From the IMG/VR virus record IMGVR_UViG_3300045988_143356: a DNA stretch of 64,000 bases, one strand, 5' to 3'. The notes under the pieces are model-generated. The model saw only the letters and a program-made list of their open reading frames with translations. It made no database searches and was not told where the DNA came from. This document shows, piece by piece, positions 8,931 to 40,481 of this stretch. Made by a program: the position numbers and the translations under genes. This DNA comes from a virus. The number at the start of each line of letters is the position of its first letter. The stretch's first letter is position 1.

Positions 8931-8960
8931 AGGGCCGCCGTGAGGCGTCCCTTTCTTTTT
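8931..8960. terminator. Bidirectional rho-independent terminator between convergent operons
   Basis: Hairpin AGGGCCGCC-GTGA-GGCGTCCCT (9-bp stem with one mismatch, GTGA loop). Flanked by an A-run upstream and TTCTTTTT downstream. Confidence 0.6.
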
Positions 8961-18034: not shown

Positions 18035-18333
18035 GCTCTGCCTTCGAGTCCTCGACGCACAACGAGCGAATCAAGAACGTTTACGGCAACTTCGGTTTCT
18101 GGTCGTGGCTGCGCTATTGGTACCTTGACTCGGCGAACCTCGTGACGATGTGGCTGATAGACAAGGGATATTACGATTACGACTACGAGAAGGAGGGTAA
18201 GCTGATAACGGTGTCGGGAACTCGCAAGTCAAAGACTGATGTTAACAATATTCTTCGTAACTTTGGACTGCCTGTTGAAGGCGAGGATTTACAATCATAC
18301 ATAATCAAGGAGGAACAAAAAAATGGCTGTTGA
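17507..18333 (+). CDS. Tail assembly chaperone -1 frameshift product (GT-like)
   Basis: The -1 frame is open from before 17881 through 18333 (...KKGRQVGSAFESSTHNERIKNVYGNFGFWSW...). It ends 11 nt inside the tape-measure start. Confidence 0.6.
18016..18022 (+). promoter_or_regulatory. Programmed -1 ribosomal frameshift slippery site A_AAA_AAG
   Basis: Zero-frame codons are ata-aaa-aag (18014-18022). The heptamer is identical in form to the dnaX-type X_XXY_YYZ site. Confidence 0.65.
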
Positions 18334-21300
18334 GATACCGGTAGTCATAGACATAGACAAGGCGTTTGACGACGCTATCAAGAAGCTGCCGTCGGCGATG
18401 CGCCCGTTGAAGAACACGATAGAGCAGCTTTCGCAGGAGCTGAACATAGCGCGTCAGATTATGGCGGAGGCTCCGATAGACAGCAAGGACTGGCAGGACG
18501 CGGCGAATATGGTAAAGGGGTTGTCGCAGTCTTTGGAAGTCGCATCCGACAAGATGCGGAGATTGGTAGCCAACGATGGCAGCATCAAGCAGATGACCGC
18601 CACCTTGGCCTCGCTGAATCGTAGGTGGGAAGAGATGGGATATATGCAGAAGTTCCAGAACGCTTCGCAGTTGTCAAGCGAGGCGGAGGCTTTGTATGCT
18701 GAATATAAAAGAATAACAAAGTCTTTGCAGCAGAACAAGACCCTTACACAGCTTTGGGCGGAAGAGCAGGCAAAAGCGGCGAAAGCCGCAGAGCGGCAGG
18801 CCGCTGCCACCAAAGCTGCGCAGGACAAGGCATTCATGATGTCCTCCCCGGCGAACACGCTTGCGGGTTTGCGCAAACAGGAAACTCTACTGTCAGCCGC
18901 GATGGGGCAGGTTACTATTGGATCCGCAGCGTTCAGGGATTATGAGAACCGCCTGACAGCAGTGCGCAACAAGATAAAGTCAGCCACAAAGGAGCAGAAA
19001 ACATATAACACTGCGTTGTCCGAAAGCCATTCGCGCCTTGGCACGCTGATAAAAAGTACCGTGGCGTACTTCTCTTTGCGCCAGGTTACAAATTTCCTGC
19101 GTAATATCCGTGCTGTCACCGCCGAGTTCGAGATGCAGCGTGTTGCCTTGGGAGGTATCATCCAGGATAGCGACAAGGCAAGCGAACTCTTCAAGCAGAT
19201 AAAGGCCGCTGCAATCAAGTCGCCTTTTGAAATCAAGGATTTGGTCTCATACACGAAGCAGTTGTCCGCGTACCGGATAGAGACAGACCAGCTTTTTGAG
19301 ACCACGCAGCGTCTGGCCGATGTGTCTTCCGGTCTTGGCGTGGATATGGGGCGTATCATACTCGCCTACGGCCAGGTCCGCGCTGCTTCGGTGCTTCGTG
19401 GAACCGAGTTGAGACAATTTACCGAGGCCGGGATTCCATTGGTGGAGCTTTTGGCAGAAAAATTCTCGCAGCTTTCCGGGCGAATGGTCAACACCGCCGA
19501 GGTGTTCGACCTTATATCGAAGCGTGCTGTGTCGTTCAAGATGATCAAGGAGATATTTGAGGATATGACCAACGCTGGCGGTATGTTCTATAAGATGCAG
19601 GAGAAACAGTCCGAGACGTTGCAGGGTAAGTGGATGAACTTGAAGGATTCCGTGTCCATTATGTATGATGAGATAGGAAACACGAAAGATATTCATACGG
19701 CTATGGAATGGATGCTATCTTTCGCGACCGCGTTGATGAATAACTGGCGCACCGTGGGGAAGGTGCTTGGCGGCGTGATAGCGTCTATGACGGCTTATAA
19801 AATAGCGGTGACAAATACCACGATAGCCATTAATGCGCAGACAGCCGCCAATGGCATAGCTCAAAAGATGGAATGGAGTCGCCAAATAGGTATGAGCAAG
19901 ACCATATCACTCATATTCGGCGAGACGGCTGCCAGGAAGATTCAGATAGCCTTGATGCGTACCTACGTCGCAGTCAAAGCCAAGGAGGTAGCGGCCACGA
20001 ACCTTTTCACAAAGGCATTCTATAAGATGACCGCCGCCTTGCTGAAAAATCCTTACGCGCTTGCGATAGCGGGAATCACGGCTTTGGGCTACGGGTTGTA
20101 TCAGTTGATGACAAATGCCAACAAGGCAAAAATAAGTGTTGATGATTTTGAGAAATCCTTGGAATCTTTCAAGCAGTCCAAGTCGCACGCCAAGGATATT
20201 GATGATTTATGCGCGGCTTATGACGAGCTTAATAAAAAGACGGACAAGACCGCCGAGGAGCAGAAAAAGCTCGAGCGCATAACTAAAGATTTAGCAAAGG
20301 CATATCCGTCCGCTGTCGCTGGTGTAGATGCGCAGACGGGGGCATTGAAGATTAACACCAAGGCTATCAAAAGCAATAACGAAGCTGTAAAAGAGGCTAT
20401 CAAATTGGCGTTGACGCAAGATAAGACAAGTGCGGAGGCAGAACTTGCCAAAAGGGAAGCGGAACGCGACAAGATAGCAAGAGAGTTGGAACGTGGTAAA
20501 GTAACACGTTTTGGGCCTTACAATACGCAATATGAAGGTGATTTAACCGAGGAAGAGCGAGCTGCCAGAGGCCGTCGTATCACCGAGTTGGAAGCCGAAA
20601 TTAAGCAATATTCAAACTTGGTTGAAGATGCGGAAAAACAATTGGAGGGGTATTCCGAAGAAGTGGGCGTTTGGCTTGACTTCTTTGATGACAAATGGCG
20701 CTTATCCCTCACCGGCTATTCATATACCTTGCAGAGCACCGGTCAGCGGGTCCGTGCCTTCACCAAAGAACAGATAGAGAATTTCACCTCGCTGAAAGAC
20801 GCACTGGACGCCGCAGCGAAGGGCTACAAGGAGCAGAAGGAGGCGGTCGAGTTCTATACGCACGCATACAACGCTGCCACGGGCGGCAAGAAAGACCAGA
20901 TGAAGGCGGCTCTCGCTGACGCGCAGGCGCAGCTTGCCATGTACACGAAGATACTGACCGACAATGATGCCATGTATCTGACAGCGCAGAAAGGCAAGGG
21001 CGGAGCATCAAGTGACCCGTTTATCATCCAGATAGAGAATCGCATCAAGTTCATGAAAGACTTCCAGAAGGGTTACGAGTCTCTTTTGAAGTATATGTCT
21101 TCCTCGGCTGCCTTGCAGAAAGAGGGCAGCATCATGCAGGGACGTGGTGTCGCCTTGGGCATAGACCCGTCTGAGCAGAAGCGTGCCGCCACTGACCTTT
21201 CTGGATGGCTCGAAGATTTGAAAAAGACGGTGTTCGCAGAGGCGCAAAAGAAGGGTGCTAAAGGTGATATTCTTAATTTTCTCGGTTTGAAAATCAACTC

Positions 21301-24917: not shown

Positions 24918-27900
24918 GTGATCAAGGGCATTACAGAAGTCAACTTCCCGTCCTATGCGACGCTGAGCCAGGCCACCGTCTCTCTGGAGGAGATGGGCAG
25001 CCGAACCATTACCACGCAGGTGAAGATAGACGGCGGCATTACGCCCGATTTTGAGAGCAAAGAGTGGAAGCTGGTTTACAACGGCGAGGAGTTCATACTG
25101 AACACCAAGACCCCGCAAGCGACAAAAGACACCTCTACACAGAAATCTATTCTTGACTTGGTGTTCGTCTCTTCGATGGAGTCCGAGTTGAAGCGGTACT
25201 TCTTCATCGAGCTTTCCGAGGTTGAGCTTGGCACGGTAATCATCGACAAGTACATAGCGTCTCTCCGGCTCAACGTAACGTACTTCATCACGGCCTTCAA
25301 CCGTGTGCTGGAGTACTATTTCGGGGCGAACAAGTTTCGTATAGTTGCGGCCCCTGGCGTGACGCTTTCCCCGGAGGTCAAGGATGTATCAATAGAGTAC
25401 ACCTATCTCTGGGATGTGCTTCCGGTATTTTATGACGTTTACGGTCTTACATGGCATTTCACAAAGGATGTCAACGGCTACACTATAACCGTCGGCGGCG
25501 AGATGCAGCCCATCCGGGGCCATGTGTTCCAATACGGTTATCTTGGCGGTCTGACACGCATAGAAAGGCAGATAGAGGACGCTGACATATACAATCAGCT
25601 TCTTGGCCGTGGCGGAGACAAGAACCTGCCGTACAGATACTTCAAGAAGGCGGACCCGAACAACACTGCGTTCGCCGGGGACCCCGACGCCTGCGCTGAG
25701 TTGTCAACGGTCTATTTCGAGCGGCTTCTGGACATCAACTTCCGGTACTATGTCAAAGGTTGGCTCCGTAACCCGAACCGCCCGATAAACGCCAATTATC
25801 CCGTGCCTACGACCACCGAGCCGGAAGAGGTGACATCCACGTGGGCGTACCAGAAAGGTTTGACGGACGAGAAGTTCCGTCCGGTCGAGTACGTAAAGGA
25901 TGATGAGTCGATAGCCAAGTACGGTGTGCGGCAAGGCAAGCTGGATGACAACGACGAGATATATCCGACTATACAAGGTGTCACTGTGTCGCCTTACGGC
26001 AGGATTGACGAGATTGTTGCGGTGGGTTCGATTACCGATGGTAGCGACGGCGTTGATACTGACAACGGTGTGACAAAGAAGGTCACACTTCCGGATATGC
26101 TCGCTGACTTGACGAGCACCAAGTCGTTTTCGGATAATAGGAACGTCACTGATTTTGTGACAATAGTGGGTACATCCTTTAGTGTTCCGGCCGGATTCAT
26201 TGGGCAGATTGATTATGTGCCATACGTTGAGCGTCAAAACTCGCGAGATTTTGTATTCATATACGAGCCTAAGGAGACCGAGATTTTCGCCGTCCGCGAC
26301 AGCGACGGTGCATTGTTCGGAATCGCCAGCATACCGGGTGGCGAAAGCTATCATCTGAAAGTGAAATTCGTCGTTTCGATTGGTGCGGCGCATCGTGGAC
26401 AGAGCAGTACGACAAGAGAGGTAGGTTTCAAGAATATAACATTGACCTCTTCCGTTAAGGCGTCCTCCGGCAGCGACACCGCTCAAACCTTCAACGTATG
26501 GATAAAGAACGTGTTCCAGACCACACAGGGCACGGATGAGACTGACTTGCAGTACATGAAGCGTGTGTGGGAGCCGATACTTGGAGACCGTGTGGGCAAC
26601 GAGGCAAAGCTGGTTTTCTCTGATGGCTGGATGTCAGCCAGCAGCGATTATGAGTTCACCATCGTTGACTGGCCTACCGTTGACCGCTCCAAGACCACTG
26701 ACGGCGTTTCCTCAGAGTGGATGCTCACCCTCGCCAAGTCCGACGTGGACTACGAGGCGACAGGCAAGTACCTTCCGAACGCCACGAGTCCGAAGCCCGT
26801 GGGCGGAGACCATTTCTTCTTCATCGGCATAGATATGCCGCACATCTATGTGGAGTGGGCGGAGAAGAAACTTAACGCCGAGAAGCAGACCGCCTTGGAG
26901 AGCAAGGCCTACGCCAACCCGACGTGGGCGGTTCAGCTGGACAAGATACGAATCAACACGCTCGTCGGAGACGAGACAGCCACGCTGATGTCACGCCTCG
27001 GCACAGGAGTGGTGATGCAGATATTCGACAAGCGGTTCTCCGGCGGTCAGATACTTTTCCTTGCCATACGGTCGATGACTATAACGTGGGCGAACGACAC
27101 GGCGATGCTTCCGAATGTCAATGTGGTACTTTCCGAGAATGTGCTGGCGCGTTCAAGCGGCTCGTCAACGCTTTCCCCGGAAAACATCATCGCAAGTCTT
27201 GCGTCAACAGTCAATAAGATTCAGCAGCAGAACGCGATGATGCCGATGGTATATCTGTCCAAGGAAAAGGATGATGTGGCTGTCGGCCATATCACGATGC
27301 AGCAGGGGTCTTCTTTCGGAAACTACGCCGGCGGACTCGCAGGATTTGGCGGAAACATCGACGCCAAAGGTCGCGGCGAGCTTGACGAGTTGACCATCCG
27401 TCACTTCCTTGAGGTTCCGGAACTTCGTTACAACCGCATATCCGTGCAGATTGGCAACCGTTGGAACGCTCCGGGCGGCGGAATCATAGAACGCGTCGAG
27501 CCTGATTATGACACTGACGGCAACATCTTGAACACGGGAATCATCTACCTTCATCTGGAGGATGGCGAGATAGGCATGGTCGCTCTTGATGACATCTGCA
27601 TGGGAATATACCACGACGGCATCACGGCAGACACGAATGCTTTAGCCGACACGGATGACGGAATAGGCAACTTCCATTTCAGCGGGTTCTACACAACCTA
27701 TTTCCGCGTCACGGAGATTCTGGCCGGCGACAATCACGCATTCCGATACTCCATCCGTCCTGTGAGTGACACCTGGAAAGAGACGCATCATCCTTGCGAG
27801 GCCATGCACTTTGTCGGCTACGGCAACTTCTCAGACACGACAAGGCAGACGTCACGATATTCAACCAGGACCTACGAGCGGTATCTGAAAGGCGTCAACA

Positions 27901-28364
27901 GCTGGGAGTTCACCAAGGACAACATCGGTGCGCAGTTCGGTGATCTGTCGAACCTGAGCGTGTTCAGCCTGAACATGACCGGTTACTCGGCTTATCTGAA
28001 CAATATCTATATGTCCGGTGTGATACAGCAGTTCCAGGATATCCCGTACCGTATGGAAATAGACACCGGCGGCCAGGATACGCTCGCCTATGGTGAGTCC
28101 ATAACGGTCAAGTGTTCCGTGTTCCACGGTTGGGATGACAAGACCTCTGAGGTCACTTCCTGGAGTATAGTCCGGGACACTGGCGACACCGCGGCTGACG
28201 CCGCGTGGTCGGAACTCGACAAGGTTAAGAATTTTGCGGGAACCATAACCATAGCGCACGGCAAGGGTTACAGTGACCTCGCAACTGTGGGGCTGAGTAC
28301 CTTGTTCACCATCACGGCGACGCTTTCTGACGGCACTTCCGCGCAACTTGAATTGACTGTATGA
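24918..28364 (+). CDS. Large tail-tip / Tal-like host-specificity protein
   Basis: 1148 aa, GTG start. Position follows TMP and Dit. Antisense ORFs within it are rejected. Confidence 0.55.
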   Translation: MIKGITEVNFPSYATLSQATVSLEEMGSRTITTQVKIDGGITPDFESKEWKLVYNGEEFILNTKTPQATKDTSTQKSILDLVFVSSMESELKRYFFIELSEVELGTVIIDKYIASLRLNVTYFITAFNRVLEYYFGANKFRIVAAPGVTLSPEVKDVSIEYTYLWDVLPVFYDVYGLTWHFTKDVNGYTITVGGEMQPIRGHVFQYGYLGGLTRIERQIEDADIYNQLLGRGGDKNLPYRYFKKADPNNTAFAGDPDACAELSTVYFERLLDINFRYYVKGWLRNPNRPINANYPVPTTTEPEEVTSTWAYQKGLTDEKFRPVEYVKDDESIAKYGVRQGKLDDNDEIYPTIQGVTVSPYGRIDEIVAVGSITDGSDGVDTDNGVTKKVTLPDMLADLTSTKSFSDNRNVTDFVTIVGTSFSVPAGFIGQIDYVPYVERQNSRDFVFIYEPKETEIFAVRDSDGALFGIASIPGGESYHLKVKFVVSIGAAHRGQSSTTREVGFKNITLTSSVKASSGSDTAQTFNVWIKNVFQTTQGTDETDLQYMKRVWEPILGDRVGNEAKLVFSDGWMSASSDYEFTIVDWPTVDRSKTTDGVSSEWMLTLAKSDVDYEATGKYLPNATSPKPVGGDHFFFIGIDMPHIYVEWAEKKLNAEKQTALESKAYANPTWAVQLDKIRINTLVGDETATLMSRLGTGVVMQIFDKRFSGGQILFLAIRSMTITWANDTAMLPNVNVVLSENVLARSSGSSTLSPENIIASLASTVNKIQQQNAMMPMVYLSKEKDDVAVGHITMQQGSSFGNYAGGLAGFGGNIDAKGRGELDELTIRHFLEVPELRYNRISVQIGNRWNAPGGGIIERVEPDYDTDGNILNTGIIYLHLEDGEIGMVALDDICMGIYHDGITADTNALADTDDGIGNFHFSGFYTTYFRVTEILAGDNHAFRYSIRPVSDTWKETHHPCEAMHFVGYGNFSDTTRQTSRYSTRTYERYLKGVNSWEFTKDNIGAQFGDLSNLSVFSLNMTGYSAYLNNIYMSGVIQQFQDIPYRMEIDTGGQDTLAYGESITVKCSVFHGWDDKTSEVTSWSIVRDTGDTAADAAWSELDKVKNFAGTITIAHGKGYSDLATVGLSTLFTITATLSDGTSAQLELTV

Positions 28365-29518: not shown

Positions 29519-30595
29519 ATGGCAAACATAACTGTACAGAATCATTTCACGATAAGGCGGCTCCGCACCGGAGACACCCTTTTTCTCACAATAGCCAACA
29601 ACGGCGTGCCGCTTATGCAGACAGTTAACACCGCAACCGGCGTGCCCACACCTGATTGGACCATAGAGTCCAACCAACCCGTGTTGACACCGAAGGTTAA
29701 TGCTGCAAGCGGTAATCCCGTTGTGCTTTCTGCGCATAAATGGCTGTATAACGGTTCCGAGCTGACTTTCTCTGGCGCTACGACAGATGGTTGGATTCTT
29801 GATACCACAGAACGGTTCAAGGTTAACGAGGCTACCGGCGCGCTGCGGATAGTGGCCAATCTTGGCGGCACGGATAACCTTGACGGCGATGTGCTTCAAT
29901 ACTCGTGTGTCGCCACCGCCGGCGAGGTGAATTATCCCATGGCGAGGAGCGTGGATATTCAGATTTTCGGGTCAGATGCCGCGTCCTATTATGGCATGAT
30001 CACTGCCACCACAGAACAGATTACCGCAAATACGCCTACCGCCACGGTGACGACACGGCTGTTTTTCGGAAGCGAAGAGAAGACAGGATACACCGTGAAA
30101 TGGTACAAGGACGAGGATATTTGGACAGAGAAGGGAAACGGCTCCTCTATCATTGTGAATCGTGGAGATGTTGACGGGGCACAGCTTATCATAGCCGAGT
30201 TCTACGAGTCTGCCGAGGACATCTCGCCAGTGTTCCGCGCTGGTATCAGGATAATCGACACGCTGGATGACTATTTTGTCGCGCACAGATACGTCGTGTC
30301 TGCCACGAACAGGGCCACGACCGGAGCGAACACAGAGGTGGCACCGAACAAACCGGTTTATCTGGAAGCCTATGTGGTCAATGTCCGGACTAACGTGGAG
30401 TTGACCGGAATAACAGATGCCAAGTGGGTATCTAATATTATGGACAAAGACACCTGGACTTCATTGCTGCGTGTCCCGGTGACGGGTGAGAATACGGGGG
30501 CGACCAACCTCGTCATGGTAACCACCGCCCAGACAGACAAGGACAATGTTGAAAAAGATGTGGTCGTGGTGTCCGAAGTGGAATGGTCTTTGTGA
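29519..30595 (+). CDS. Tail/baseplate accessory protein, beta-rich
   Basis: 358 aa, with repeated Ig-like-looking segments. Confidence 0.5.
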   Translation: MANITVQNHFTIRRLRTGDTLFLTIANNGVPLMQTVNTATGVPTPDWTIESNQPVLTPKVNAASGNPVVLSAHKWLYNGSELTFSGATTDGWILDTTERFKVNEATGALRIVANLGGTDNLDGDVLQYSCVATAGEVNYPMARSVDIQIFGSDAASYYGMITATTEQITANTPTATVTTRLFFGSEEKTGYTVKWYKDEDIWTEKGNGSSIIVNRGDVDGAQLIIAEFYESAEDISPVFRAGIRIIDTLDDYFVAHRYVVSATNRATTGANTEVAPNKPVYLEAYVVNVRTNVELTGITDAKWVSNIMDKDTWTSLLRVPVTGENTGATNLVMVTTAQTDKDNVEKDVVVVSEVEWSL

Positions 30596-30832: not shown

Positions 30833-31945
30833 ATGGACAATTGTACTTGCATCTCAAGAGAGAGAGTTTCTATTGTATATGGCAATGATTTCACAATCGA
30901 GGCCCATGTCTCCGTTTACGATAAGGACGAAGGTATATATAAGCTGCTCGACCTTACTGGCGTGAAGGAATGTCAGATGCGTCTGGTCGGGACTTATCGC
31001 AAAGCCATCGGCAAAGACATTACAGTCACCGGGTCTAAGGTCACGGCTTTCTTTCCGGGCGGCTCCGTCGGAGTCGGCACTTACGGAGTTGAGATAACTT
31101 TTGTTGACTCGCTCGGCAAGGGAAGAATCTTTGAGCGCAACCTTATCGGTATAGTGTCAGCCAGCGGTGATGCAACCGTGGACAATATTATCGAGGGGGA
31201 GACCGGCGAGGGGCTGAACGTCACGGTCAATGTTTTAACCCGTACCGTGAGAATCGGCACGAGTGGGGGGTCTTGCGTTCCCGATTCGGCGCTTTCTGAG
31301 ACCAGTGAGAATTGCGTGCAGAACAGAGTCGTGACAGGAGCCATAAGGGAGTTGCAGGACTACTGCTTCCCGACTTCACTTGAGGCTTCCATCTCGCCGT
31401 CTTCGGCAGAATGGACAGGTAACTCAGTAGAGGTCAGTGTATCTTTCAGGGTTCTCAGAAACTCTAAGCCAGTAGTAGCTGACACTGTCCAGATCCAGTT
31501 CAACGGCGAGACTAAGACCCTGGAGAATGTAGCGGAGGGCTCAGAGAAATTCACTCTCTCTACTCAGGGCTACAAATCTGGCTCAGTCACTGCTAAGAAG
31601 GGCAGTACTACCATAAAGAACTCACCAAGGTCTATCAGTGCTAATCTTTATCTCCCAGTATATTATGGATTCTCTAAGGCCACCACAGGAAATGAGTTGA
31701 CTATCACTTCACTGACTAAGGGAGGCTCTTCTCTCAATGGTACCAAGACTCTTAACAATGATGATGCTACTAAGTACTTGTGGCTCTGCGTCCCTAACAC
31801 CATGTCGATCAACAAGGTTACATCTGGTGGTTTCGATGTTCCGTTCTTGGCTTCAGTAGAGGCTTCTACTCCACTGGGAACCTACAAGTGCTATCGAACT
31901 AAGGATCTTCCTGGTGCTGGCTCTATGACCATTGTTATCTCTTAA
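30833..31945 (+). CDS. Mosaic tail fibre / receptor-binding candidate
   Basis: ORF 30809..31945 trimmed to ATG 30833. Contains DSALSETSENCVQNRVVTGAIRELQ, a fibre-like motif. Codon usage and GC drop at about 31350-31400, inside the gene. Confidence 0.5.
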   Translation: MDNCTCISRERVSIVYGNDFTIEAHVSVYDKDEGIYKLLDLTGVKECQMRLVGTYRKAIGKDITVTGSKVTAFFPGGSVGVGTYGVEITFVDSLGKGRIFERNLIGIVSASGDATVDNIIEGETGEGLNVTVNVLTRTVRIGTSGGSCVPDSALSETSENCVQNRVVTGAIRELQDYCFPTSLEASISPSSAEWTGNSVEVSVSFRVLRNSKPVVADTVQIQFNGETKTLENVAEGSEKFTLSTQGYKSGSVTAKKGSTTIKNSPRSISANLYLPVYYGFSKATTGNELTITSLTKGGSSLNGTKTLNNDDATKYLWLCVPNTMSINKVTSGGFDVPFLASVEASTPLGTYKCYRTKDLPGAGSMTIVIS

Positions 31946-31958
31946 AACTTAGAATATC

Positions 31959-32315
31959 ATGGCAGATTATATCAAGATCTATGGCGAACTAAGACGACCC
32001 TTAGGGGGACAATATGTCACAGACTCAGATCAGATAAAGCACAAAAATGAGACCGTAAAAGAGGTTCTCGATAGACTAGACGGTGTCACCTACGTAGATG
32101 TCCCAGAGCTCGAGAACGATTACATTGTTCAGGCAAGCGCATCTCACAAAGAGACTGTCTATACTATCGAAGTGGGAGCAACCATTCATGCTATCGTGGG
32201 TGACTCCACCATTAAATGGATGAACGGAGAGGCTCCTGTAACTCAAGCTGATCGCATATACGTGGTCTCAGTGATCGGGTCTCTGGCCGTCTGGGGAGAA
32301 TTTCCAAAAGCTTAA
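31959..32315 (+). CDS. Hypothetical protein (118 aa), low-GC cassette
   Basis: ATG ORF between fibre-region genes. Confidence 0.55.
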   Translation: MADYIKIYGELRRPLGGQYVTDSDQIKHKNETVKEVLDRLDGVTYVDVPELENDYIVQASASHKETVYTIEVGATIHAIVGDSTIKWMNGEAPVTQADRIYVVSVIGSLAVWGEFPKA

Positions 32316-32318
32316 GCT

Positions 32319-32498
32319 ATGAGTGTATTTAGAGCTCTGATGATGCACAAGCATCAGCCTCTGAGTGAGTTTATTAAACTTATTCCAGAGAACTTAGAAT
32401 TTCCGAACCCAGAGAGCACTAAAGATCTAACTATAGAATCTAATGCTCCATGGACTCTTGGAGTTAAATACAACGACGAAACACCTAACAAAGGATAA
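32319..32498 (+). CDS. Mini-ORF (59 aa) encoding only the first half of a BACON-like domain
   Basis: Hand-translated: ...LIPENLEFPNPESTKDLTIESNAPWTLGVKYNDETPNKG*. Parallels the C-terminus of the 32529..34181 protein (LTPESLTFVAAGESKELTIESNDSWTLE*). Confidence 0.45.
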   Translation: MSVFRALMMHKHQPLSEFIKLIPENLEFPNPESTKDLTIESNAPWTLGVKYNDETPNKG

Positions 32499-32528
32499 TT
32501 TATTAATTTCTTAAAAACCATTAAAAGT

Positions 32529-34181
32529 ATGGCAAAACCGAGTTGGATTAAACTGGGCAAGAGCTCAGGTTCCATGAACGATTCCACAACTGTTACCGCC
32601 AGTGAGTACACGGGGCGTCAGCAGAGAGGTGGAACAATCACTGCTAAAACAACTGGAGGTGCAACCGACACTACTTCAGTTTCGCAGGCCGGTAAGGCTG
32701 AGTTCATTAATGTGCCGACCAAGACTTACAATGCCGCTGCAAAGGGTAGCAACTCTGACGGTTCTGACACCATTCAGATCACTGGTACCGCAAATACGGC
32801 AAACATCAAGGTGGCCGAGACTACTGGCAAGATTATCCCTGGGGCAGCCTACAAGATCCAAGTCAACGCAGTCAATGATGAGTCTTGGGATGGAAAGACT
32901 GACACTGGCATTGATGACGATCCGGGTAAGGATGCTCAGTTCACTTTCACTATCGACGTCAAGATCCCAGAGAACAAGACTGAAGCTGCCAGAACATTGG
33001 AGATCAAGCTTCAGAATGGTAACGGTGATGTGACCACAGAAGCTATCACTATCACTCAGGCCAAGGGTGTCAAGTCTTATGGTGCTGTTACCCTCACCGT
33101 GGGCACTTATCAGCAAATCCCAGCTGCCGGTGGTACTGTTGATGCTCCTTCTGTTTCCTTCTCACAGCCTTGGGGATGGAACGGTAAAACTTCGGGTGGG
33201 GGAACCATTACTACTGGTGGCACTGTTGCTTATGCAACTAAGACCGGATGGCCTTCAGCTCTTACCCTTGCCACAGCTACGGGTCAGGTATCTGCGGAAT
33301 CTCGTACAACCGTGGTTGGAGACGTGATTTCAGGCACTGTAACTATCACTCTCAATGCTAATGGCAAGTCTGCTTCCAAAGAGGTTTCAGTTAGTCAGCA
33401 AGCCAATTCCGTTACTTATGCAGTTACGGATGTGACACTGGCTGCTCCAGCTGACATCCCAGCTTCCGGAGGTTCAGTATCTTCTACTACGGTTACAGCC
33501 AAGGGTTCACAGACTTACACCTCGGGTTCAGTCACCAGTGATGTTGCCCTCACCAACGGCTCTGATGATTGTACCATCACCTTTAGTGAGGGAGTTTCAG
33601 CTGCTTCACTTGGTACAACTGTTACCAACAGAACTAAGAAGGGCACTCTCACTGCTACGGTTACTTGGAAGACTACAGCTACCAAGTCCGCTTCTGTAGA
33701 TGTATATCAGGCAGCCAACACCGCTACTTACGGTGACATCACCTTTGACTCTGCCGTTGCCACAGAGGTTTCACTCAAGGCTGACGGTACCCAAAGCCGC
33801 AACATGACCGACAACTCCAGTGTTGGAGCCAAGCAGACTGTCACCTATACTTCGGGCGCCACCAGAACAGAGGCTAGCGCCACTGCTGCGGTTGTCTTCG
33901 ATCTCAGTCCAAAGGTCAAGACCGCCGCAACTGGGTTTGCTCTCTCTTCTGACGGCATCGTCTCTGTTGGAGCCAATCCTACTACTGAGCCTCGTGGAGG
34001 CTTCGTTGTGACGGTTACTGTCACCGGCGAGGGCGACAAGACTGCCACCAGAGACTTCACGTTTAGTCAGCAGGGGTCTTCTTCCTACATCAACCTCACT
34101 CCAGAGAGCCTCACCTTTGTGGCTGCCGGAGAATCCAAGGAGCTCACTATAGAGTCAAACGACAGCTGGACTCTTGAATAA
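32529..34181 (+). CDS. BACON-like/Ig-like repeat surface protein (fibre-cassette paralogue 1)
   Basis: 550 aa. N-terminus MAKPSWIKLGKSSGS...TASEYTGRQQRGGTITAKT...SVSQAG fits the second half of a BACON domain. Shares PWGWNGKTSGGGT with the next gene. Confidence 0.6.
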   Translation: MAKPSWIKLGKSSGSMNDSTTVTASEYTGRQQRGGTITAKTTGGATDTTSVSQAGKAEFINVPTKTYNAAAKGSNSDGSDTIQITGTANTANIKVAETTGKIIPGAAYKIQVNAVNDESWDGKTDTGIDDDPGKDAQFTFTIDVKIPENKTEAARTLEIKLQNGNGDVTTEAITITQAKGVKSYGAVTLTVGTYQQIPAAGGTVDAPSVSFSQPWGWNGKTSGGGTITTGGTVAYATKTGWPSALTLATATGQVSAESRTTVVGDVISGTVTITLNANGKSASKEVSVSQQANSVTYAVTDVTLAAPADIPASGGSVSSTTVTAKGSQTYTSGSVTSDVALTNGSDDCTITFSEGVSAASLGTTVTNRTKKGTLTATVTWKTTATKSASVDVYQAANTATYGDITFDSAVATEVSLKADGTQSRNMTDNSSVGAKQTVTYTSGATRTEASATAAVVFDLSPKVKTAATGFALSSDGIVSVGANPTTEPRGGFVVTVTVTGEGDKTATRDFTFSQQGSSSYINLTPESLTFVAAGESKELTIESNDSWTLE

Positions 34182-34195
34182 GACTGTCATAAGGT

Positions 34196-34217
34196 GGGAG
34201 GGGGCAAAACCCCTCTC
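34196..34217 (+). terminator. Possible hairpin terminator/attenuator between the two BACON-like genes
   Basis: GAGGGG-gcaaaa-CCCCTC hairpin followed by a T-rich stretch without a clean T-run. Confidence 0.3.
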
Positions 34218-34251
34218 ATCTTCTAATTTATTCTAAAAAAACAGAATCATC

Positions 34252-37056
34252 ATGGCAAAACCAAGTTGGATCACTGTAGTATCCGGGTCTACAGGAAGTG
34301 GCTCAGGGACAAGATCACTAAAAGCAAGCTCCCATACTGGAAGGTCAAGCAGATCAGGCTCTATCAAAGGAGTTACCTCTGGTGGCGCCTCTGATTCTGT
34401 AGTTCTCTCACAGGTTGGAGCTGGTGAGTTTATCAGGGTAGACAAGGCTTTCTATTTTGTTGCAGCTCTGGGTGGCACCGTGAAAATCACTGGCACCAGC
34501 AACTCACCATCTCTGAAGCTGACTAATCACACCAGACCATATTTACTTTCCAACTTTGCCCTTAAGGTGAACGGGACTGCCTATTCATGGGATGGGAACG
34601 CCTCTCATCAGATATCGGGTGATCCTGGGGCATCTAGCTCTTACACTTTTGAGATCTCCTTTGACGTGGCAGAGAATCAGACAGAGAACTCCAGGGACAG
34701 CACTTTCAGGCTCCGCGATTCGAGTGATCCTAGGGTGTCTTCTAAAATCATTACTATTAGACAGACAGCAGGCGAGAAGACCTACGGCACTGCAAGTGTC
34801 AATATGAGATATTCTAATTGGAATATAGGCGCAGAAGGAGGAGTTGCTACCCCTTCTTACGAATTTTCAATCCCTTGGGGATGGAATGGCAAAACATCTG
34901 GTGGTGGAACTCTTACCCAATCTAATTCTTCCCATTCTGTAAAATACACCTATTATACTGATCCTCCTGGTTCTCCTTATAACTGGACCTTAAACGAGCA
35001 AACAGGAGAGCTAGTTATGGATTCTCTGGGAAAGGTCATCACTGATTCTTATAAGAAAGCCCGTATTAAGATAACCATTGTCGTTGATGGCCAGACATTG
35101 ACTTCCACCGACTTTGTAAGACAGGATCCTAATAAGGCTACATACACTTTAAGCTCTGCTTCTGTTTCATTAGATGATATCCCAGCATCGGGTGGCTCAG
35201 CTGACTCACCAAACTTTATCTCAGCTTCAGGCAAGATTGATTATTCTTCTGGAGAATCCGATACTCTTTCTATAACATCCTCAGATGTTATCATTACGTT
35301 GTCTAAAACTGTAAATGGCTCGAATCTTGGTTCAACTGTTAAGGCCAGAACAAAACTTGACACAATTATAGCCACTATAACCTGGAATGGTTCCCAAATA
35401 ACCCAAAGCATTGATGTGTACCAACAGGCCAATCAGGTAACCTATTCATCAGTTAGCGCCACATCTTCTACTGTAATTATTCCAAAGACTGGTGGGGATG
35501 TGGATATAGCTGCCAAGGTATCCCCGAACCAGACAGCCACCTATACTTCTGGTGCTACTAGAACCACAACTGATTTTACCTATGAGTTTACATCAGTACC
35601 AAGTTTGGTAACTATTGATGAGCTTAATCTCAAGGCCACTGTTGGTAAGAACGTCACAGGTTTAACTAGAGACGACACTATTGAAATGAAGATAACCGGC
35701 GAGGGGAGCAAGTCAACTACAGCATCTATATCTTATCATCAGGAGTCTTTAGTTATGCCTTCTTGGGATGTTCCTGCTACATTCCGTTTTGACAGTATTG
35801 GTCAAAGTGATCTATCTCCATCAGGCTTGGATTTGAATATATCTGCCCCAGATAATGTGGGTTGGACTATTGAAGGACCTTCTTATGTTGGCAACCGTTT
35901 AGTAAGTGGCGACCCGCTACCAATAAGTGGTACCGGAAATAAGAGCTTGTCTCTGGCACCTGATGTTAACACTTCTTCAGAGAGAACCTTTGATCTCGTT
36001 CTTAAAGCTTCTACTGGAGATGTGATTGCCACTTGCAATTGTACACAGGATGCTTCTGCTGAACAAGCTCACACTCTCACTATTACTCATGAAGTTTGTG
36101 GTAAGTTGAATGTCGCTTCGGGCGATATCACCATTTGTGTATCACCATTTGGAACTCTCAATGAGTTTAATGAAGACTATCTTGAATTAGGGACAACTGA
36201 TTATGTAAATGATAGTAATCTTGGTCTATCAGTTGCGCACTCGGTTATAGAACAGCTATCTACTAAGCTTAACGTAGGTGATTGGATGGATTGCAACTAT
36301 CTCTACTTCTGGGTTAAGAATGGAAGTACCCAAGCTAACGTAGTTCCAGTGTTTGGATCAACTTCTAAGACTCACTTTACCAATACTACTTTTGTGTTCT
36401 ATGAGTATGACCTTATTACTTCTAATCTGAAGAATCAGCTGTCAAACTTTGCAGCTTCAGGAAATACAGACTCGATAGATCTCTCAGAGACTTACGGTGT
36501 GAACCTGCTTTCTACCCGTAAGATGACCCTTAAGGGCACATTCCCTGTGGCTTTTGCACAAGATCCTACAGGTTATGATATGGAAGCGTTCTTACGTCTT
36601 TATTACCATGCAGGAAGCGAGATATGCTATGCTCCGGTGATCCCTATTCAACTCTTTGACAACATTGACACTTCAACCGATTCAAACGGGAATATAATTA
36701 AGAATATAAACTTCTATCGAGTTATACCATTGACTCAGTCAACTAATTATATAACCTTTAATGGATGGGAGATATTCTTGATTAACAATATTGATGTTTA
36801 TAACGTAGTTGCAAAAGCCCATGATGGACATATAAATTTAACCGCAGAGCCTATTTCAGCTAATATGAGTTTTGGATTCTCAGTAGGTACTGGTCCTGAT
36901 AATGATACTGAGGTTACTGGTGATAAGTGGTTAGCTCCGTTTGATGAGGATGGTGATCAATCTTATTGGGGCTGGGATTTTGGATCCTTGGATAATGATT
37001 GTACGATGGATGTTAGTGCTGCTACCGGTGAATCATGGATTGCTCTATTTAGCTAG
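34252..37056 (+). CDS. BACON-like/Ig-like repeat surface protein (fibre-cassette paralogue 2)
   Basis: 934 aa. MAKPSWITVVSGSTGSGSGTRSLKASSHTGRSSRSGSIKG...VLSQVG. Lowest GC of the window in its 3' half. Confidence 0.6.
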   Translation: MAKPSWITVVSGSTGSGSGTRSLKASSHTGRSSRSGSIKGVTSGGASDSVVLSQVGAGEFIRVDKAFYFVAALGGTVKITGTSNSPSLKLTNHTRPYLLSNFALKVNGTAYSWDGNASHQISGDPGASSSYTFEISFDVAENQTENSRDSTFRLRDSSDPRVSSKIITIRQTAGEKTYGTASVNMRYSNWNIGAEGGVATPSYEFSIPWGWNGKTSGGGTLTQSNSSHSVKYTYYTDPPGSPYNWTLNEQTGELVMDSLGKVITDSYKKARIKITIVVDGQTLTSTDFVRQDPNKATYTLSSASVSLDDIPASGGSADSPNFISASGKIDYSSGESDTLSITSSDVIITLSKTVNGSNLGSTVKARTKLDTIIATITWNGSQITQSIDVYQQANQVTYSSVSATSSTVIIPKTGGDVDIAAKVSPNQTATYTSGATRTTTDFTYEFTSVPSLVTIDELNLKATVGKNVTGLTRDDTIEMKITGEGSKSTTASISYHQESLVMPSWDVPATFRFDSIGQSDLSPSGLDLNISAPDNVGWTIEGPSYVGNRLVSGDPLPISGTGNKSLSLAPDVNTSSERTFDLVLKASTGDVIATCNCTQDASAEQAHTLTITHEVCGKLNVASGDITICVSPFGTLNEFNEDYLELGTTDYVNDSNLGLSVAHSVIEQLSTKLNVGDWMDCNYLYFWVKNGSTQANVVPVFGSTSKTHFTNTTFVFYEYDLITSNLKNQLSNFAASGNTDSIDLSETYGVNLLSTRKMTLKGTFPVAFAQDPTGYDMEAFLRLYYHAGSEICYAPVIPIQLFDNIDTSTDSNGNIIKNINFYRVIPLTQSTNYITFNGWEIFLINNIDVYNVVAKAHDGHINLTAEPISANMSFGFSVGTGPDNDTEVTGDKWLAPFDEDGDQSYWGWDFGSLDNDCTMDVSAATGESWIALFS

Positions 37057-37144
37057 TTGCCAAAATTTGAAGGAAGATTACCAAAATTTATAGGTACCCT
37101 ATAATCCGATAGGACTGTATGTTGAAATCATATCATAATAATCC

Positions 37145-40039
37145 ATGAAAGCACAAGGATATCAGACTGTAACACGTTCAAGAGCGGGTAAAGACGGTGT
37201 ATCGGCATTCAAGAGCGTGGTTTTCAAAAGAAGCAATGAAGATATAGATGCACCCGTAGGTGGTACGTATGATTCCCCGGTACCCTCCGGTTGGAGTGAT
37301 GGTGTTCCGGGAGGCGAGGAAAAATTGTGGATGTCAACAAGGATATTCACAAACACTGGAGGCGCACCGCAGCAGGCGGCATGGACAACGCCTTCCGTGG
37401 TAACAGACACGGCGGACATTGATTTCGAGTTCTCGGCTGCCGCGAGTAATCCTGGAAATCCTACAAGTTCACCGAAACTTTGGCACAATACCGCCACATC
37501 GAATGACGTGTGGATGGCCGTGCGGAAGAAGAGCAATGGTGTGTGGGGAGCATGGGAGGTGTCGAAGATAAAGGGCGATAAGGGCGAGGACGGGAAGTCT
37601 TTCTACACGTGGATAAAGTACGCCGACAACGCAGACGGCGGCGGAATCAGCGACAACCCTGTGGCCGCCGACGGCACGCTTAAGAAATACATCGGCTTCG
37701 CGTACAACAAGACCTCGCCGACGGAGAGCAACGTGGCCTCGGACTATACGTGGGCGCTTTTCAAGGGCACTGACGGCACCGACGGCCTCCCTGGAAAGCC
37801 GGGCGACGACGGCACGACCTACTACACGTGGATAAAGTACGCCGACGCTCTGGGAAGCAACGGCTATCCTACCGAGATGTACGACACGGCCAAGGCAACG
37901 ACGGAGTATATCGGCATAGCGGTGAACCAGACGGAGCGTGCGGAGGGGACAGACCCGGCGGCGTACTCGTGGAGCAAGTTCAAGGGCGAGGACGGGAAGG
38001 GCATCGTCTCGCAGGTCGATTACTACGCCGTGTCGGCTTCCAAAACGGAAGTGCCGACAAATTGGACACCGAACACGCCGCCGAGCATGACCGCGACGCT
38101 TCGCTACCTGTGGAAATACACGCTGACCACGTTTACTGATGGCAACACCGTGCAGACTGCCCCTTGTGTGGTAGGCGTGTTCGGTGTAGACGGCCTGTCC
38201 TATCGATACTCGAAATGGGTCGCTGGCGTGGAGTACAGGAATGATAACAATCCATATTACCGCGATTCTAACGGGCAGGGTATTATTGACGTCGTTTATG
38301 TGAACGGTATAACCATGTATGACCCGAACAGTGACACCACCCCGCCTGCCGGGTATATCTGTCGAAAGACGCATACTTCCCTTGACACGGTGATATTCTC
38401 GTCAGAGGGTAACTGGACACAAGAAGACAATGTTTTCACCTCAGACACCATAACGGACAATAATGCGACATGGGCGAAAATCAAGTTCAAGACAACGGCG
38501 GCGAACACAAAGATCACGGTAAAGATAACGGCTTCGTCGGAGGCGAATTATGATTGGGGATATGTGTGCGGCCTTGACGCTGATTTCAGCACGACGAGCT
38601 ATCTTGCCAAGGTATCAGGAACAAATACTCAAACAGTTGAGATAGCGGTGCCCAAACCGGGCGTGCATTTTTTCTATGTCGGTTATACGAAGGATGGATC
38701 CGGCTACAAGAACAATGACAATACTGTTGTTGAGATAATATCTGTATCACCGTCCCCTGTTCCGCTCGCCGTAGGTGAATATTGGACGCAGATGAACTCT
38801 ATGGCACCTATTCTGACAGCTTTGGTGCTTGCTGACAGAATAAAAGCGAACGCCATTGATGTGGAGAGCCTCGCCGCGAACACCGCGTTCATCGACAACC
38901 TGACGGTAAACAAGCTGATGGCCGGGATAAAGAACGGACAGAGGATTGAGATAACGCCTGATAAGAAATCCATCGACATTTATAATTCCGACGGCACTTT
39001 AGCCTCCGTGTTAGAAGGCAATGAATATACAGCAATATCGTCCTTATTCAGTTCGGTAACTTCGGGGGCCATCACGGTAACCGAAGAAAGCGGAACAAAA
39101 CGAATGGATGGGGAGGATTTATTCGGTTCATCAACCCCGATTACTTCAGCGACGCAATTCTTGACACCTTCAAAAATAACAGTGGGAAGTGGAACACTTT
39201 CCATCGAACCTATTGTAACAATGATGGGCGGAACCTATATCACTTCAATAGGGTTGTACCTATGCACTTATTCTGATGAAAATTGCACAAATAAGATATA
39301 CTCTTCAGAAGTGCGTAGACTCCTAGCTAATAGTGAGTATAGTCAAAACACACAGACCTTAACCTTTTCTAATGGAACGGGGGTTGTTCCGGCTGGATGG
39401 ACAAGGTTGGAGATAGTGGTGGTGTCCCATCAGATTGGTTTTCCTATATTGATATGCTCATGGACTGACATCAGTGACGTGACTTATACTTCTGATTTCT
39501 ACGTCTCACGATACTTCGCAAATGGCTTATGCCTCGGCAGGAATCTGAACAACTATATTGCTATTTATAATAGTGGTTTGGTAGGGGGGATGAATTGCAG
39601 TATGGTGAATGGTGTTTACAGGTTTGACTTTGATGCCGACGGCATCTTTTTCAAAAGAAGTGCAAAGGAGGATAGAAAGAGACTTGCACCTAGATATGGG
39701 CTTCCTTTCGCCGCCCTAGCGGTGGGCACTATGCTTCTAAATTCCACTTCTCCGTCCATGGGAAATTACAGAACCGTTGATGGCTCAAATACTGGCATGT
39801 CCGTGTCCCGGGTTTCCAACGGCACATTCAAGGTCACGATACCGTCCACTTGGGGTAACCGATATATAGTACAACTCACGACATTGGGTAGGACTGACAG
39901 TGATAACCCAATGGGGGCATCAGTCAGTACCATTTCGACAGGATCATTCATCGTTGATACTATGAGCTTAAAGGGCACTTGGGTCAACGAGGCAAAGGTT
40001 ATGTTTTTAATCACAGATTTGTATGATTTCAATGGATGA
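37145..40039 (+). CDS. Tail fibre protein with repeated YTWIKYAD...FKG-DG modules
   Basis: 964 aa. Has a three-fold repeat (KGDKGEDGKSFYTWIKYAD... / FKGTDGTDGLPGKPGDDGTTYYTWIKYAD... / FKGEDGKG). Returns to high GC. Confidence 0.65.
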   Translation: MKAQGYQTVTRSRAGKDGVSAFKSVVFKRSNEDIDAPVGGTYDSPVPSGWSDGVPGGEEKLWMSTRIFTNTGGAPQQAAWTTPSVVTDTADIDFEFSAAASNPGNPTSSPKLWHNTATSNDVWMAVRKKSNGVWGAWEVSKIKGDKGEDGKSFYTWIKYADNADGGGISDNPVAADGTLKKYIGFAYNKTSPTESNVASDYTWALFKGTDGTDGLPGKPGDDGTTYYTWIKYADALGSNGYPTEMYDTAKATTEYIGIAVNQTERAEGTDPAAYSWSKFKGEDGKGIVSQVDYYAVSASKTEVPTNWTPNTPPSMTATLRYLWKYTLTTFTDGNTVQTAPCVVGVFGVDGLSYRYSKWVAGVEYRNDNNPYYRDSNGQGIIDVVYVNGITMYDPNSDTTPPAGYICRKTHTSLDTVIFSSEGNWTQEDNVFTSDTITDNNATWAKIKFKTTAANTKITVKITASSEANYDWGYVCGLDADFSTTSYLAKVSGTNTQTVEIAVPKPGVHFFYVGYTKDGSGYKNNDNTVVEIISVSPSPVPLAVGEYWTQMNSMAPILTALVLADRIKANAIDVESLAANTAFIDNLTVNKLMAGIKNGQRIEITPDKKSIDIYNSDGTLASVLEGNEYTAISSLFSSVTSGAITVTEESGTKRMDGEDLFGSSTPITSATQFLTPSKITVGSGTLSIEPIVTMMGGTYITSIGLYLCTYSDENCTNKIYSSEVRRLLANSEYSQNTQTLTFSNGTGVVPAGWTRLEIVVVSHQIGFPILICSWTDISDVTYTSDFYVSRYFANGLCLGRNLNNYIAIYNSGLVGGMNCSMVNGVYRFDFDADGIFFKRSAKEDRKRLAPRYGLPFAALAVGTMLLNSTSPSMGNYRTVDGSNTGMSVSRVSNGTFKVTIPSTWGNRYIVQLTTLGRTDSDNPMGASVSTISTGSFIVDTMSLKGTWVNEAKVMFLITDLYDFNG

Positions 40040-40481
40040 TTTAACGAAAAATTTTTCTTACTCGGAGTTTACCGAGTCAAGCACGGCCAAGGCGAGGGGG
40101 ATCGACAACAGTCTTCCGAACCAGGCCGTGCGCACTGCTATCAAGGAGCTTGCTGAGAATATTCTGCAACCGCTCCGTGACGCATACGGAAGCGGCATAA
40201 GGATTACATCCGGCTATCGTTGCCCCGCCTTGAACAAGGCGGTGGGCGGCGTGGCCACCTCCGCGCACCTTACGGGTTACGCGGCGGATTTGCAGCCGAT
40301 AAACGGTGATATCGCCGGGTTTACCAGATTTGCCGTTGAATGGTTGAAACGCACCGGCACTGCTTTTGACCAGTGCATAACCGAGCGTAACACCCATACC
40401 GGAGCGATATGGCTGCACATCGGGCTGAAAGGTCCTGGAGGCAAGCAGCGCAAACAATTTTTAAATATGACAATATCATGA
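40023..40481 (+). CDS. Endolysin, peptidase M15 (Zn D-Ala-D-Ala / L-Ala-D-Glu peptidase family)
   Basis: FSYSEF..., ITSGYRCPALNKAVGGVATSAHLTGYAADL matches the SGYR...N...GG..S.H..G.A.D signature. Confidence 0.8.
   Translation: MISMDDLTKNFSYSEFTESSTAKARGIDNSLPNQAVRTAIKELAENILQPLRDAYGSGIRITSGYRCPALNKAVGGVATSAHLTGYAADLQPINGDIAGFTRFAVEWLKRTGTAFDQCITERNTHTGAIWLHIGLKGPGGKQRKQFLNMTIS

Follow-up and report, generated by a model that had tools for sequence, protein, structure and literature searches.

A BACON domain divided between neighbouring genes in the fibre module of a tailed phage and its relatives: a candidate non-covalent joint and an exchange boundary

In a stretch of viral DNA of 64,000 nucleotides (nt) (IMG/VR record IMGVR_UViG_3300045988_143356; hereafter the window), a BACON-like domain appears to be cut in two at the boundaries of neighbouring genes, the first half closing one gene and the second half opening the next, at two consecutive junctions. 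This raises the question of whether the pieces belong to one domain and, if they do, whether the cut marks a broken gene, a product rejoined during expression, a boundary of recombination or a domain completed between separate proteins. The genes concerned are a mini open reading frame (mini-ORF) of 59 amino acids (aa; 32319-32498), protein A of 550 aa (32529-34181) and protein B of 934 aa (34252-37056), all on the plus strand, as are the other genes and signals of this module given below. We refer to a BACON first half at a C-terminus as a socket and to a BACON second half at an N-terminus as a plug. The mini-ORF ends ...TIESNAPWTLGVKYNDETPNKG* and is followed after 30 nt by A, which starts MAKPSWIKLG; A ends ...TIESNDSWTLE* and is followed, after 70 nt that include a hairpin, by B, which starts MAKPSWITVV. 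The sequences, distances and hairpin quoted in the initial annotation were all correct on re-reading.

Two Pfam models describe the domain, PF13004 (61 positions) and PF19190 (BACON_2, 94 positions), with a gathering score of 25 bits. PF13004 matched the plug of A (aa 1-57, 32529-32699, MAKPSWIKLG...SVSQAGKAEF) over positions 8-61, the N-terminus alone scoring 27.6 bits and thus above the gathering score. The plug of B (aa 1-57, 34252-34422, MAKPSWITVV...VLSQVGAGEF) was matched over positions 8-60, with 27.7 bits for the whole of B and 23.8 bits, just under the gathering score, for its N-terminus alone. Seen through PF13004 alone, single proteins seem to hold almost the whole domain. The consensus that the initial annotation had given for PF13004 is really that of the whole structural domain, of which PF13004 covers the second half only. 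PF19190 matched the N-termini of A and B alone only at positions 42-93 (to 94 in B), and the upstream C-termini alone matched neither Pfam model.

When an upstream C-terminus was conceptually fused to a downstream N-terminus, PF19190 was covered from position 2 to 94 with a gain of about 15-18 bits, positions 2-41 being contributed by the socket of A (its last 36 aa, 34071-34178, ...YINLTPESLTFVAAGESKELTIESNDSWTLE*). Full coverage was obtained for five pairs from three lineages (other loci are designated by L numbers). The scores with PF19190 were 30.3 bits for the end of A with B, 45.9 bits for the end of A with the start of A, 40.0 bits for the end of a 532-aa protein of L001 with the A homolog of the same locus, 29.4 bits for the end of A with an 82-aa protein of L071, 38.5 bits for the end of a 2025-aa protein of L096 with a 212-aa protein, and 22.0 bits for the mini-ORF with B. 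Replacing the genuine C-terminus with a shuffled, reversed or unrelated one abolished the extension (PF19190 positions 40-94, 12-16 bits), and an unrelated C-terminus before the plug of A scored 31.3 bits against 31.1 bits for the plug alone, with a PF19190 alignment that reached only position 20. The gathering score was reached by the N-terminus of A, by whole B and by five fusions; a whole BACON domain within one polypeptide was not found in this comparison, full coverage being seen in the fusions only. The proposal of a domain split over both junctions is borne out by these results, and the check suggested for it with PF13004 gave a divided answer: the fusions are complete in PF19190, and PF13004 itself is nearly complete in the single N-termini (positions 8-61).

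A profile of the window fusions aligned to residues 36-120 of the structure 8va4_A without a break across the gene boundary (E 2e-5), the socket of A falling on residues 36-65, and also to the BACON domain of BoGH5A (3zmr_A), both of them complete single-chain domains in solved structures. The gene boundary maps to a loop (...ndsWtle / makpsWikl... against ...PSEWS-AFADAEWVAV...), and the stop codon of A lies in the loop after the W-T-L strand. Searched against 1.8 billion representatives, the same profile matched 4554 proteins. Among the top 150, the best stretch runs across the junction in 149, and the sole split entry is A's own family, which indicates that contiguous BACON domains are the norm and that the window pieces are colinear with one such domain; the top 150 are mostly multi-repeat BACON proteins and give no census of split cases. 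Judged by these alignments, the two pieces together correspond to exactly one BACON domain.

We also used AlphaFold2 (AF2) to predict a construct in which A(1-75) is joined to A(500-550) with the middle deleted, a circular permutant of the presumed domain, using 87 full-length homolog rows. The model is all-beta with a predicted template modelling score (pTM) of 0.66, and 76 residues have a predicted local distance difference test (pLDDT) value of at least 90. The second half (residues 1-57) has pLDDT 91-96 and the first half (residues 92-126) 80-96, while the linker (residues 63-91) is below 50. A confident 35-residue piece of three or four strands that is tethered by a disordered linker alone supports co-folding of the halves, and we regard this prediction as supportive of co-folding but not as proof.

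The two junctions of the window are related to each other. In BLASTP, residues 1-550 of A align with residues 1-541 of B at 34% identity, so that B is a paralog of A over this part followed by a variable distal part. The stop of A aligns with E541 of B, where B continues: B residues ~505-601 (35764-36056) hold a homolog of the A socket without a stop. The continuation past E541 resembles a BACON second half by pattern only, without a Pfam match and with an hhalign E of 0.06; the idea that B contains the unsplit copy is therefore upheld in part, the paralogy being solid through the first half of the domain. Both junctions also carry TAATTTATT, which occurs exactly twice in the 64 kb against 0.34 copies expected, two copies being reached in 3 of 100 shuffles. 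The first copy (32496-32504) overlaps the stop codon of the mini-ORF and lies 24 nt 5' of the ATG of A; the second (34224-34232) lies 19 nt 5' of the ATG of B; each is followed by an A-rich leader. These copies may serve both genes as a promoter or as a translation signal, or they may be left over from the duplication that gave rise to the two junctions. The paralogy of the two proteins and the presence of TAATTTATT at each junction mean that the junctions are one event that was duplicated, not independent cases.

This bears on whether recent decay, pseudogenisation or an assembly artefact could have broken a longer gene. The initial annotation had argued against decay from the arrangement being seen twice; decay is indeed refuted, but it is conservation across lineages that carries this, two paralogous junctions being weaker evidence than they seem. 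A has 2140 detectable homologs. Among the best 120, full-length homologs down to 45% identity measure 523-562 aa and have the same termini throughout: they begin MA(K)PxW(I/V), except for a crAss-like subgroup with an extension of about 12 residues before the Trp, and they stop directly past ...SN(D)SWTL(E/S). The termini are better conserved than the middle (0.64 and 0.70 vs 0.54), constraint within A is strongest in the plug region (27 synonymous vs 7 non-synonymous changes), and the core Trp, Phe, Leu and Ile positions are conserved in both halves. The relatives of A at 45-49% identity come from crAss-like phages; Crass_capsid, ring and tail-hub genes lie close to them. With the same cut present in hundreds of independent assemblies down to 45% protein identity, and with purifying selection on both sides of it, we consider the chance of decay or artefact negligible. 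The cut point is conserved across lineages, and these comparisons indicate that the split is old.

We surveyed the split with a full-domain hidden Markov model (HMM) built from fusion sequences, which was run on all stop-to-stop ORFs of 82 sources; these covered the window and its clade, a lineage at 73%, several crAss-like lineages and phages at a greater distance. It detected 97 first halves within 15 residues of a stop and 92 second halves at the start of an ORF, besides 48 ordinary complete BACON domains in other proteins. No internal first half was found in the 82 sources, and the one internal second half was a contig-edge artefact. The model misses divergent sockets (e.g. ...TWTVE*), so that these counts are lower bounds. 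The split arrangement exceeds chance by far. A survey of relatives for split and fused forms, as the initial annotation had proposed, found the same cut in every lineage examined, together with swaps of cassettes.

The halves are carried by more than 10 unrelated proteins. Plug proteins measure 82, 172, 211, 212, 222, 314, 361, 463, ~550 and 701-935 aa; all start at the initiator Met with MA(K/I/L)PxWI and have the same Pfam signature at residues 3-55. Sockets are found on minis of 49-59 aa, on proteins of 417 and 532 aa with Head_fiber_dimeric repeats, on A and on the 2025-aa multi-unit protein. The gene order is mini (socket), A (plug and socket), B (plug) in the window; 89 aa (socket), 319 aa (plug), 548 aa (plug and socket) in L087; 59 aa (socket), 418 aa (socket), 231 aa (plug), 224 aa (plug), 559 aa (plug and socket) in L090; and 2026 aa (socket), 212 aa (plug) in L096. 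The plug proteins of 211-231 aa in L090, L093 and L094 end with divergent sockets (...IPIKTQPGVTWTVE*, ...GTQDSVTWTVE*, ...RTQPFVTWNVE* and, e.g., ...KTQPGVTWTVE*), which makes them double-ended connectors like A. In L096 (IMGVR_UViG_3300000304_000007), the 2025-aa protein (ORF end near 14870) contains at least three A-like units in one ORF, with the motif ...YSQTWGWN(E/G)STT.GGTIT..., and ends with the socket ...IHTNESWTIS*; it is followed by the 212-aa plug protein MAKPSWITLSA.... Whether A-like units are fused is therefore independent of whether the BACON joint is split.

The two halves are often carried by non-adjacent genes, in several genomes and in crassviruses among them, and simple fission in place cannot account for this. 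The recent fission of one giant ORF, which had been offered as an explanation, does not hold: the cut is kept to 45% identity and into Crassvirales, the halves may be non-adjacent and tiny genes with only one half are maintained. The numbers of sockets and plugs per locus are mostly balanced (2:2, 3:3, 1:1). As proof of one-to-one pairing this balance carries little weight: fission also predicts it, exceptions of 3:2 and 2:1 occur, and the model misses divergent sockets.

Could the pieces be joined in expression, by read-through, frameshift, bypass or splicing of RNA or protein? In the window, a 118-aa gene upstream (31959-32315), the mini-ORF and A (together 31959-34181) share one reading frame with single TAA codons between them, and the end of the mini-ORF, GGA-TAA, is superficially like the take-off site of T4 gene 60. 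Relatives do not keep this relation: in L005 the mini is in a different frame from A, and in L001 and L003 it is in a different frame from the 118-aa-type gene, so the common frame in the window is probably a coincidence. A and B are in different frames, the frame of B is closed five codons 5' of its ATG and no open frame connects the two genes. A bypass of the T4 gene-60 type was rejected, as the candidate landing codons, read by eye, do not share the frame of the genes that follow. The features of programmed recoding (a conserved frame, an open path and a signal) were not found.

The gaps between the genes are 4-102 nt long, too short and too variable for introns, and no Rfam family matched. 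The gap between A and B holds a terminator-like hairpin (34191-34222, 13-bp stem, dG -25.3 kcal/mol, z -4.4), and hairpins of differing sequence occur at the same place, between A and the next plug gene, in L085 (z -4.3) and L001 (z -4.9). Promoter-like motifs of the type TAnnTTTG, read by eye, lie 5' of the next genes in crAss-like loci. With the halves on non-adjacent genes in some genomes as well, joining of the pieces in expression is very improbable; read-through, frameshift, bypass and splicing are excluded as far as a sequence allows, and the halves belong to separate expression units.

A profile of divergent minis retrieved 73 clusters, all of 46-81 aa, and none of the 73 contains a mini fused to a larger protein. 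Minis are present in the clade of the window, in L085, in the crAss-like L001, L003, L087 and L090, and in L097, and all are built of an N-terminal peptide MS(V/M)FRxL(L/M), a BACON first half and a short tail. In the window these parts are the peptide MSVFRxLM (32319-32345), the BACON first half (~32355-32465, positions 4-40 of the full-domain HMM) and the tail, so that the mini is a free-standing protein with a socket only. Within the clade of the window, variable sites by codon position number 11/8/21, an excess at third positions that reveals coding constraint, and the distinct codon changes are 17 synonymous and 25 non-synonymous. In MAFFT alignments, A homologs were anchored on the minis every time through the first half at their C-terminus, which shows the mini to be homologous to the C-terminus of A. 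These data point to a real, conserved gene.

In all 45 loci with a mini, from every lineage, the gene directly 5' of it encodes either a 118-aa-type protein or a longer one that ends in that domain; L085 has it as the C-terminal part of a 494-aa protein, and the pair of 118-aa-type protein and mini is also found at L001 7735-8333 and L003 9401-9996. The 118-aa protein, for which neither a Pfam nor a PHROG match was found, is a candidate virion anchor. The peptide MS(V/M)FRxLL is kept from this phage to crassviruses, and this suggests a docking contact between the N-terminal peptide of the mini and the 118-aa-type protein. A 262-aa protein of L071 (12169-12957), from an alternative distal cassette, ends ...VRWQNGEVPTFEGNTCCQLVIVNNCATIGVFKASS*, which resembles the end of the 118-aa protein, ...IKWMNGEAPVTQADRIYVVSVIGSLAVWGEFPKA*; jackhmmer gave no link between these two proteins at E below 1e-3.

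The genes downstream of A are exchanged among close relatives. Where A is 94-98% identical, the following gene varies: B variants measure 701, 706, 794, 910, 921 and 932-935 aa and diverge after about residue 601, and an alternative gene encodes an unrelated protein of 82 aa, MALPDWLRISP...TLTVTQAG with a 25-aa tail. The window and L071 are 93.3% identical in nucleotides over 31292-34257 and then unrelated until window position 40475. The homology ends 6 nt (ATGGCA) into the plug gene B (34257/34258, no strand assigned). L071 has, in place of window 34258-40474, the 82-aa plug gene and then genes for proteins of 262, 168 and 203 aa. The replaced segment holds B and a 964-aa protein of tail or adsorption type (37145-40039; matches to a PHROG tail protein and to host-range and adsorption proteins), which is swapped jointly with B as a single distal cassette. 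In L054, L060 and L062 the homology extends as far as 36056, near B residue 601. Recurrent breakpoints thus lie at 31292 (inside a 378-aa gene), 34257, 36056 and 40475, and the GC content of distal B (window 35000-37000) is 39-42% vs 47-55% around it. From these comparisons the fibre module appears to be a mosaic with recurrent breakpoints, and since homology breaks at the start of the plug, the split site is a recombination boundary too.

It may be asked whether the split is an exchange boundary and nothing more, arising from recombination homology or an old fission, with halves that never pair and with plugs forming, for instance, a homo-oligomeric neck. The breakpoints at the plug start and just past the BACON-like region of B would fit this, as would the plugs that pass the PF13004 threshold alone and the socket and plug counts that are sometimes unbalanced. 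Half a beta-sandwich, however, leaves its hydrophobic core exposed, and the core positions of both halves are conserved. Socket-only genes of about 50 aa would be without a role, yet they are kept in 73 clusters. With only 6 nt in common at the breakpoint, the plug coding sequence is not itself a homology handle. We therefore regard a boundary without pairing as distinctly unlikely. The initial annotation had proposed half-domain coding sequences as handles for cassette exchange: exchange is supported as a second role of the site, 93%-identical relatives diverging 6 nt into B, though not with the plug coding sequence itself as the handle.

The reading that we consider probable is that the BACON domain is complemented in trans and serves as a generic non-covalent joint between fibre or adhesin proteins, and at the same time as a boundary for cassette exchange. 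A socket protein would stop after the initial three or four strands (...L.F...G..K.L.I.SN..W.L, then stop), and a plug protein would supply the others from its initiator Met onwards (MA(K/I/L)PxWI...G.G...v.v..YTGR..R.G.I.......D...V.Q.G). Translated separately, socket and plug would fold into one complete sandwich, and the completed sandwich would be the non-covalent joint that chains the proteins. In the window the chain would run from the mini (socket only), possibly attached to the 118-aa protein, through A, a double-ended connector with plug, Ig-like (immunoglobulin-like) repeats and socket, to B (plug and distal binding part). With such a generic joint, whole downstream genes that begin with a plug could be exchanged at the split site while the attachment stays unchanged, giving modular fibres or adhesins. 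Among the explanations first suggested, this chaining of subunits by split-domain complementation is the best supported, by the colinearity of the halves, the conserved cut, the proteins with a single half and the AF2 model.

Several points weigh against it. We infer the physical pairing of the halves, the identity of the partners and the site of the chain on the virion. PF13004 scores the plug alone above its threshold, and the plug could be a unit of four or five strands with some autonomy, for example in a homo-oligomer. Socket and plug counts are unbalanced in L001, L091 and L092 (3:2) and in L003 (2:1), where no plug for the A socket was detectable within 10 kb. Neither A nor a crAss-type A homolog was found in the INPHARED phage collection by nucleotide search or tblastn, and no cultured phage of that collection has A. 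What AF2 modelled was an artificial circular permutant in a single chain, and the fusion in native order, predicted by AF2 from a single sequence, gave an uninformative pLDDT of 39. Foldseek of the permuted model against PDB returned nothing significant, which is expected of an order-dependent search with a circular permutant that has a disordered linker; the Ig-like beta-sandwich fold is supported by the sequence alignments to 8va4_A and 3zmr_A.

A different partner for A would be A itself: its own plug and own socket could close a loop in cis or build a head-to-tail filament, leaving the mini, B and the plug-only proteins as caps or chaperone-like factors. A does have both halves, the fusion of its end with its start has the highest score (45.9 bits with PF19190), and the confident AF2 test used exactly this pair. 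The A socket is without an adjacent plug in L003, L087 and L089, and the one surplus socket of some genomes fits a mini that acts as cap or chaperone. Proteins with a single half are nevertheless many and conserved, and closure in cis is impossible for them since each carries one half only. The counts also permit a closed hetero-chain in the window and in most loci, and the incoming gene of a cassette swap keeps its plug. Self-pairing of A, which we hold to be unlikely, is a variant of the same mechanism and does not contradict it.

More tentatively, trans-complementation may be portable: any MA(K/I/L)PxWI start could dock with any ...SNxxWTLx end, across unrelated lineages of gut phages, from the tape-measure-bearing phage of the window to Crassvirales, where one socket is on a head-fibre-like protein. 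One virion could then carry alternative or combinatorial adhesins, and the mini of about 50 aa would be a dedicated adaptor or chaperone-like cap. We see this wider form as possible, and less probable than the joint as such. If it were true, adhesins could be swapped gene by gene, by evolution or by an engineer, and viruses would here provide the first natural case of a split Ig-like domain that serves as an assembly joint.

The window belongs to a tailed phage. Profile matches identified an SPP1-like portal on the minus strand (8959-10491), a weak match to a major head protein (13808-15025), a tape-measure-like protein of 1744 aa (18323-23557) and a Prophage_tail-like protein of 1148 aa (24918-28364), and the split junctions sit among the tail genes, in a distal fibre/adsorption module. 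A 358-aa protein (29519-30595) ends ...VVVVSEVEWSL*, which is superficially like a socket; the next ORF has no plug, the HMM gives no support and the likeness is probably due to chance.

A nucleotide search of INPHARED with the window region gave no match. The module of mini, A and B recurs at 97% identity well inside a 335,670-bp contig (L136, CAKVCK010000001.1, 192592-214544) of a metagenome-assembled genome (MAG) of an uncultured Bacteroidales. This suggests a Bacteroidales host, possibly with a prophage state, or else a chimeric assembly, the host assignment resting on this single MAG-level hint. In the crAss-like L003, the Crass_capsid gene is found in three pieces of 79, 136 and >110 aa (18810-21596) with GIY-YIG and HNH homing-endonuclease genes between them, which suggests interruption by intron-type or homing elements.

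BACON and other Ig-like proteins are surface adhesins of the most abundant phages of the human gut. Such phage adhesins have been tied by experiment to epithelial and mucus binding (PMC13370021), and the atlas of crAss001 leaves the distal parts of head and tail fibres unmodelled (PMC10172136). A split joint, if true, would explain how separately encoded fibre proteins are chained, why gene-by-gene annotation reports "partial" BACON matches at protein termini, and how modules for adhesion and host range are exchanged while the attachment is kept. It predicts pairwise complexes of termini of 35-60 residues and, if confirmed, would offer a small, natural, genetically encodable pair of non-covalent tags for phage display and engineering. 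ORFs of about 50 aa in such modules should be annotated as real genes.

How does this arrangement compare with known systems? The BACON domains described in crAssphage and gut phages are complete and often in tandem within one protein (PMC6949934, PMC13370021). The family is the same, it occurs in crAss-like and other Bacteroidota phages alike and its presumed role is that of a modular adhesin or fibre; here, in contrast, the domain is divided between genes. A term search of de Jonge et al. 2019 (PMC6949934) and Apjok et al. 2026 (PMC13370021) brought up no split BACON domain, and literature searches on split or strand-complemented domains in phage fibres, split BACON included, returned nothing relevant among titles and abstracts. 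We found no precedent for a split-BACON joint in the searchable literature. The 532-aa protein of L001 that bears a socket has three PF25641 (Head_fiber_dimeric) repeats (122 bits), and its repeat region alone matches the dimeric head fibre gp29 of crAss001, of which the N-terminus is the capsid-binding part (PMC10172136). No PF25641 or N-terminus like that of the head fibre was found among the proteins and ORFs of the window, and a gp29-type head fibre is thus not seen there.

In contractile sheaths, terminal beta-strands of neighbours build a common sheet in a phage-type assembly (the "handshake"), and a donor-strand-exchange motif has been described in the sheath of an extracellular contractile injection system (eCIS; PMC13266070). 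That likeness has its limits, as in sheaths identical subunits augment a sheet, no autonomous domain is reconstituted and no modules are swapped.

Assembly of pili offers a further comparison. In chaperone-usher pili, an incomplete Ig-like subunit is completed by a strand of another chain, and a chaperone and an usher catalyse the exchange; the type V pili of Bacteroidota are also assembled by strand exchange. As proposed here, an incomplete Ig-like fold is completed in trans to give ordered non-covalent chains, and a small protein completes the fold, the chaperone in pili and possibly the mini in these phages. Pili, however, use a single donated strand and an usher, whereas the phage domain is cut about 40/60 at a loop into three or four and four or five strands, and its two parts lie at the very ends of proteins that are otherwise unrelated. 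The neighbouring proteins scanned gave no match to a pilin, chaperone or usher family. With three or four strands in trans instead of one, this is not donor-strand complementation proper, and the likeness would be one of principle only.

The long tail fibre of T4 (gp34-gp37) and the branched fibres of G7C and CBA120 with their adaptors are multi-protein fibres with adaptor joints. As in those phages, gene order would mirror the protein chain, with a conserved attachment end and a variable, exchangeable distal end. To our knowledge, the joints of T4, G7C and CBA120 are contacts between complete domains or trimeric interdigitation, with no single small domain divided between the partners. Finally, split inteins, SpyTag/SpyCatcher and split FN3 or GFP present one fold as two polypeptides that reassemble. 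The phage halves show no intein motifs, splicing or isopeptide chemistry, and their role would be structural, not catalytic; with one fold in two specifically reassembling polypeptides, these systems are the closest working analogy to the split BACON domain.

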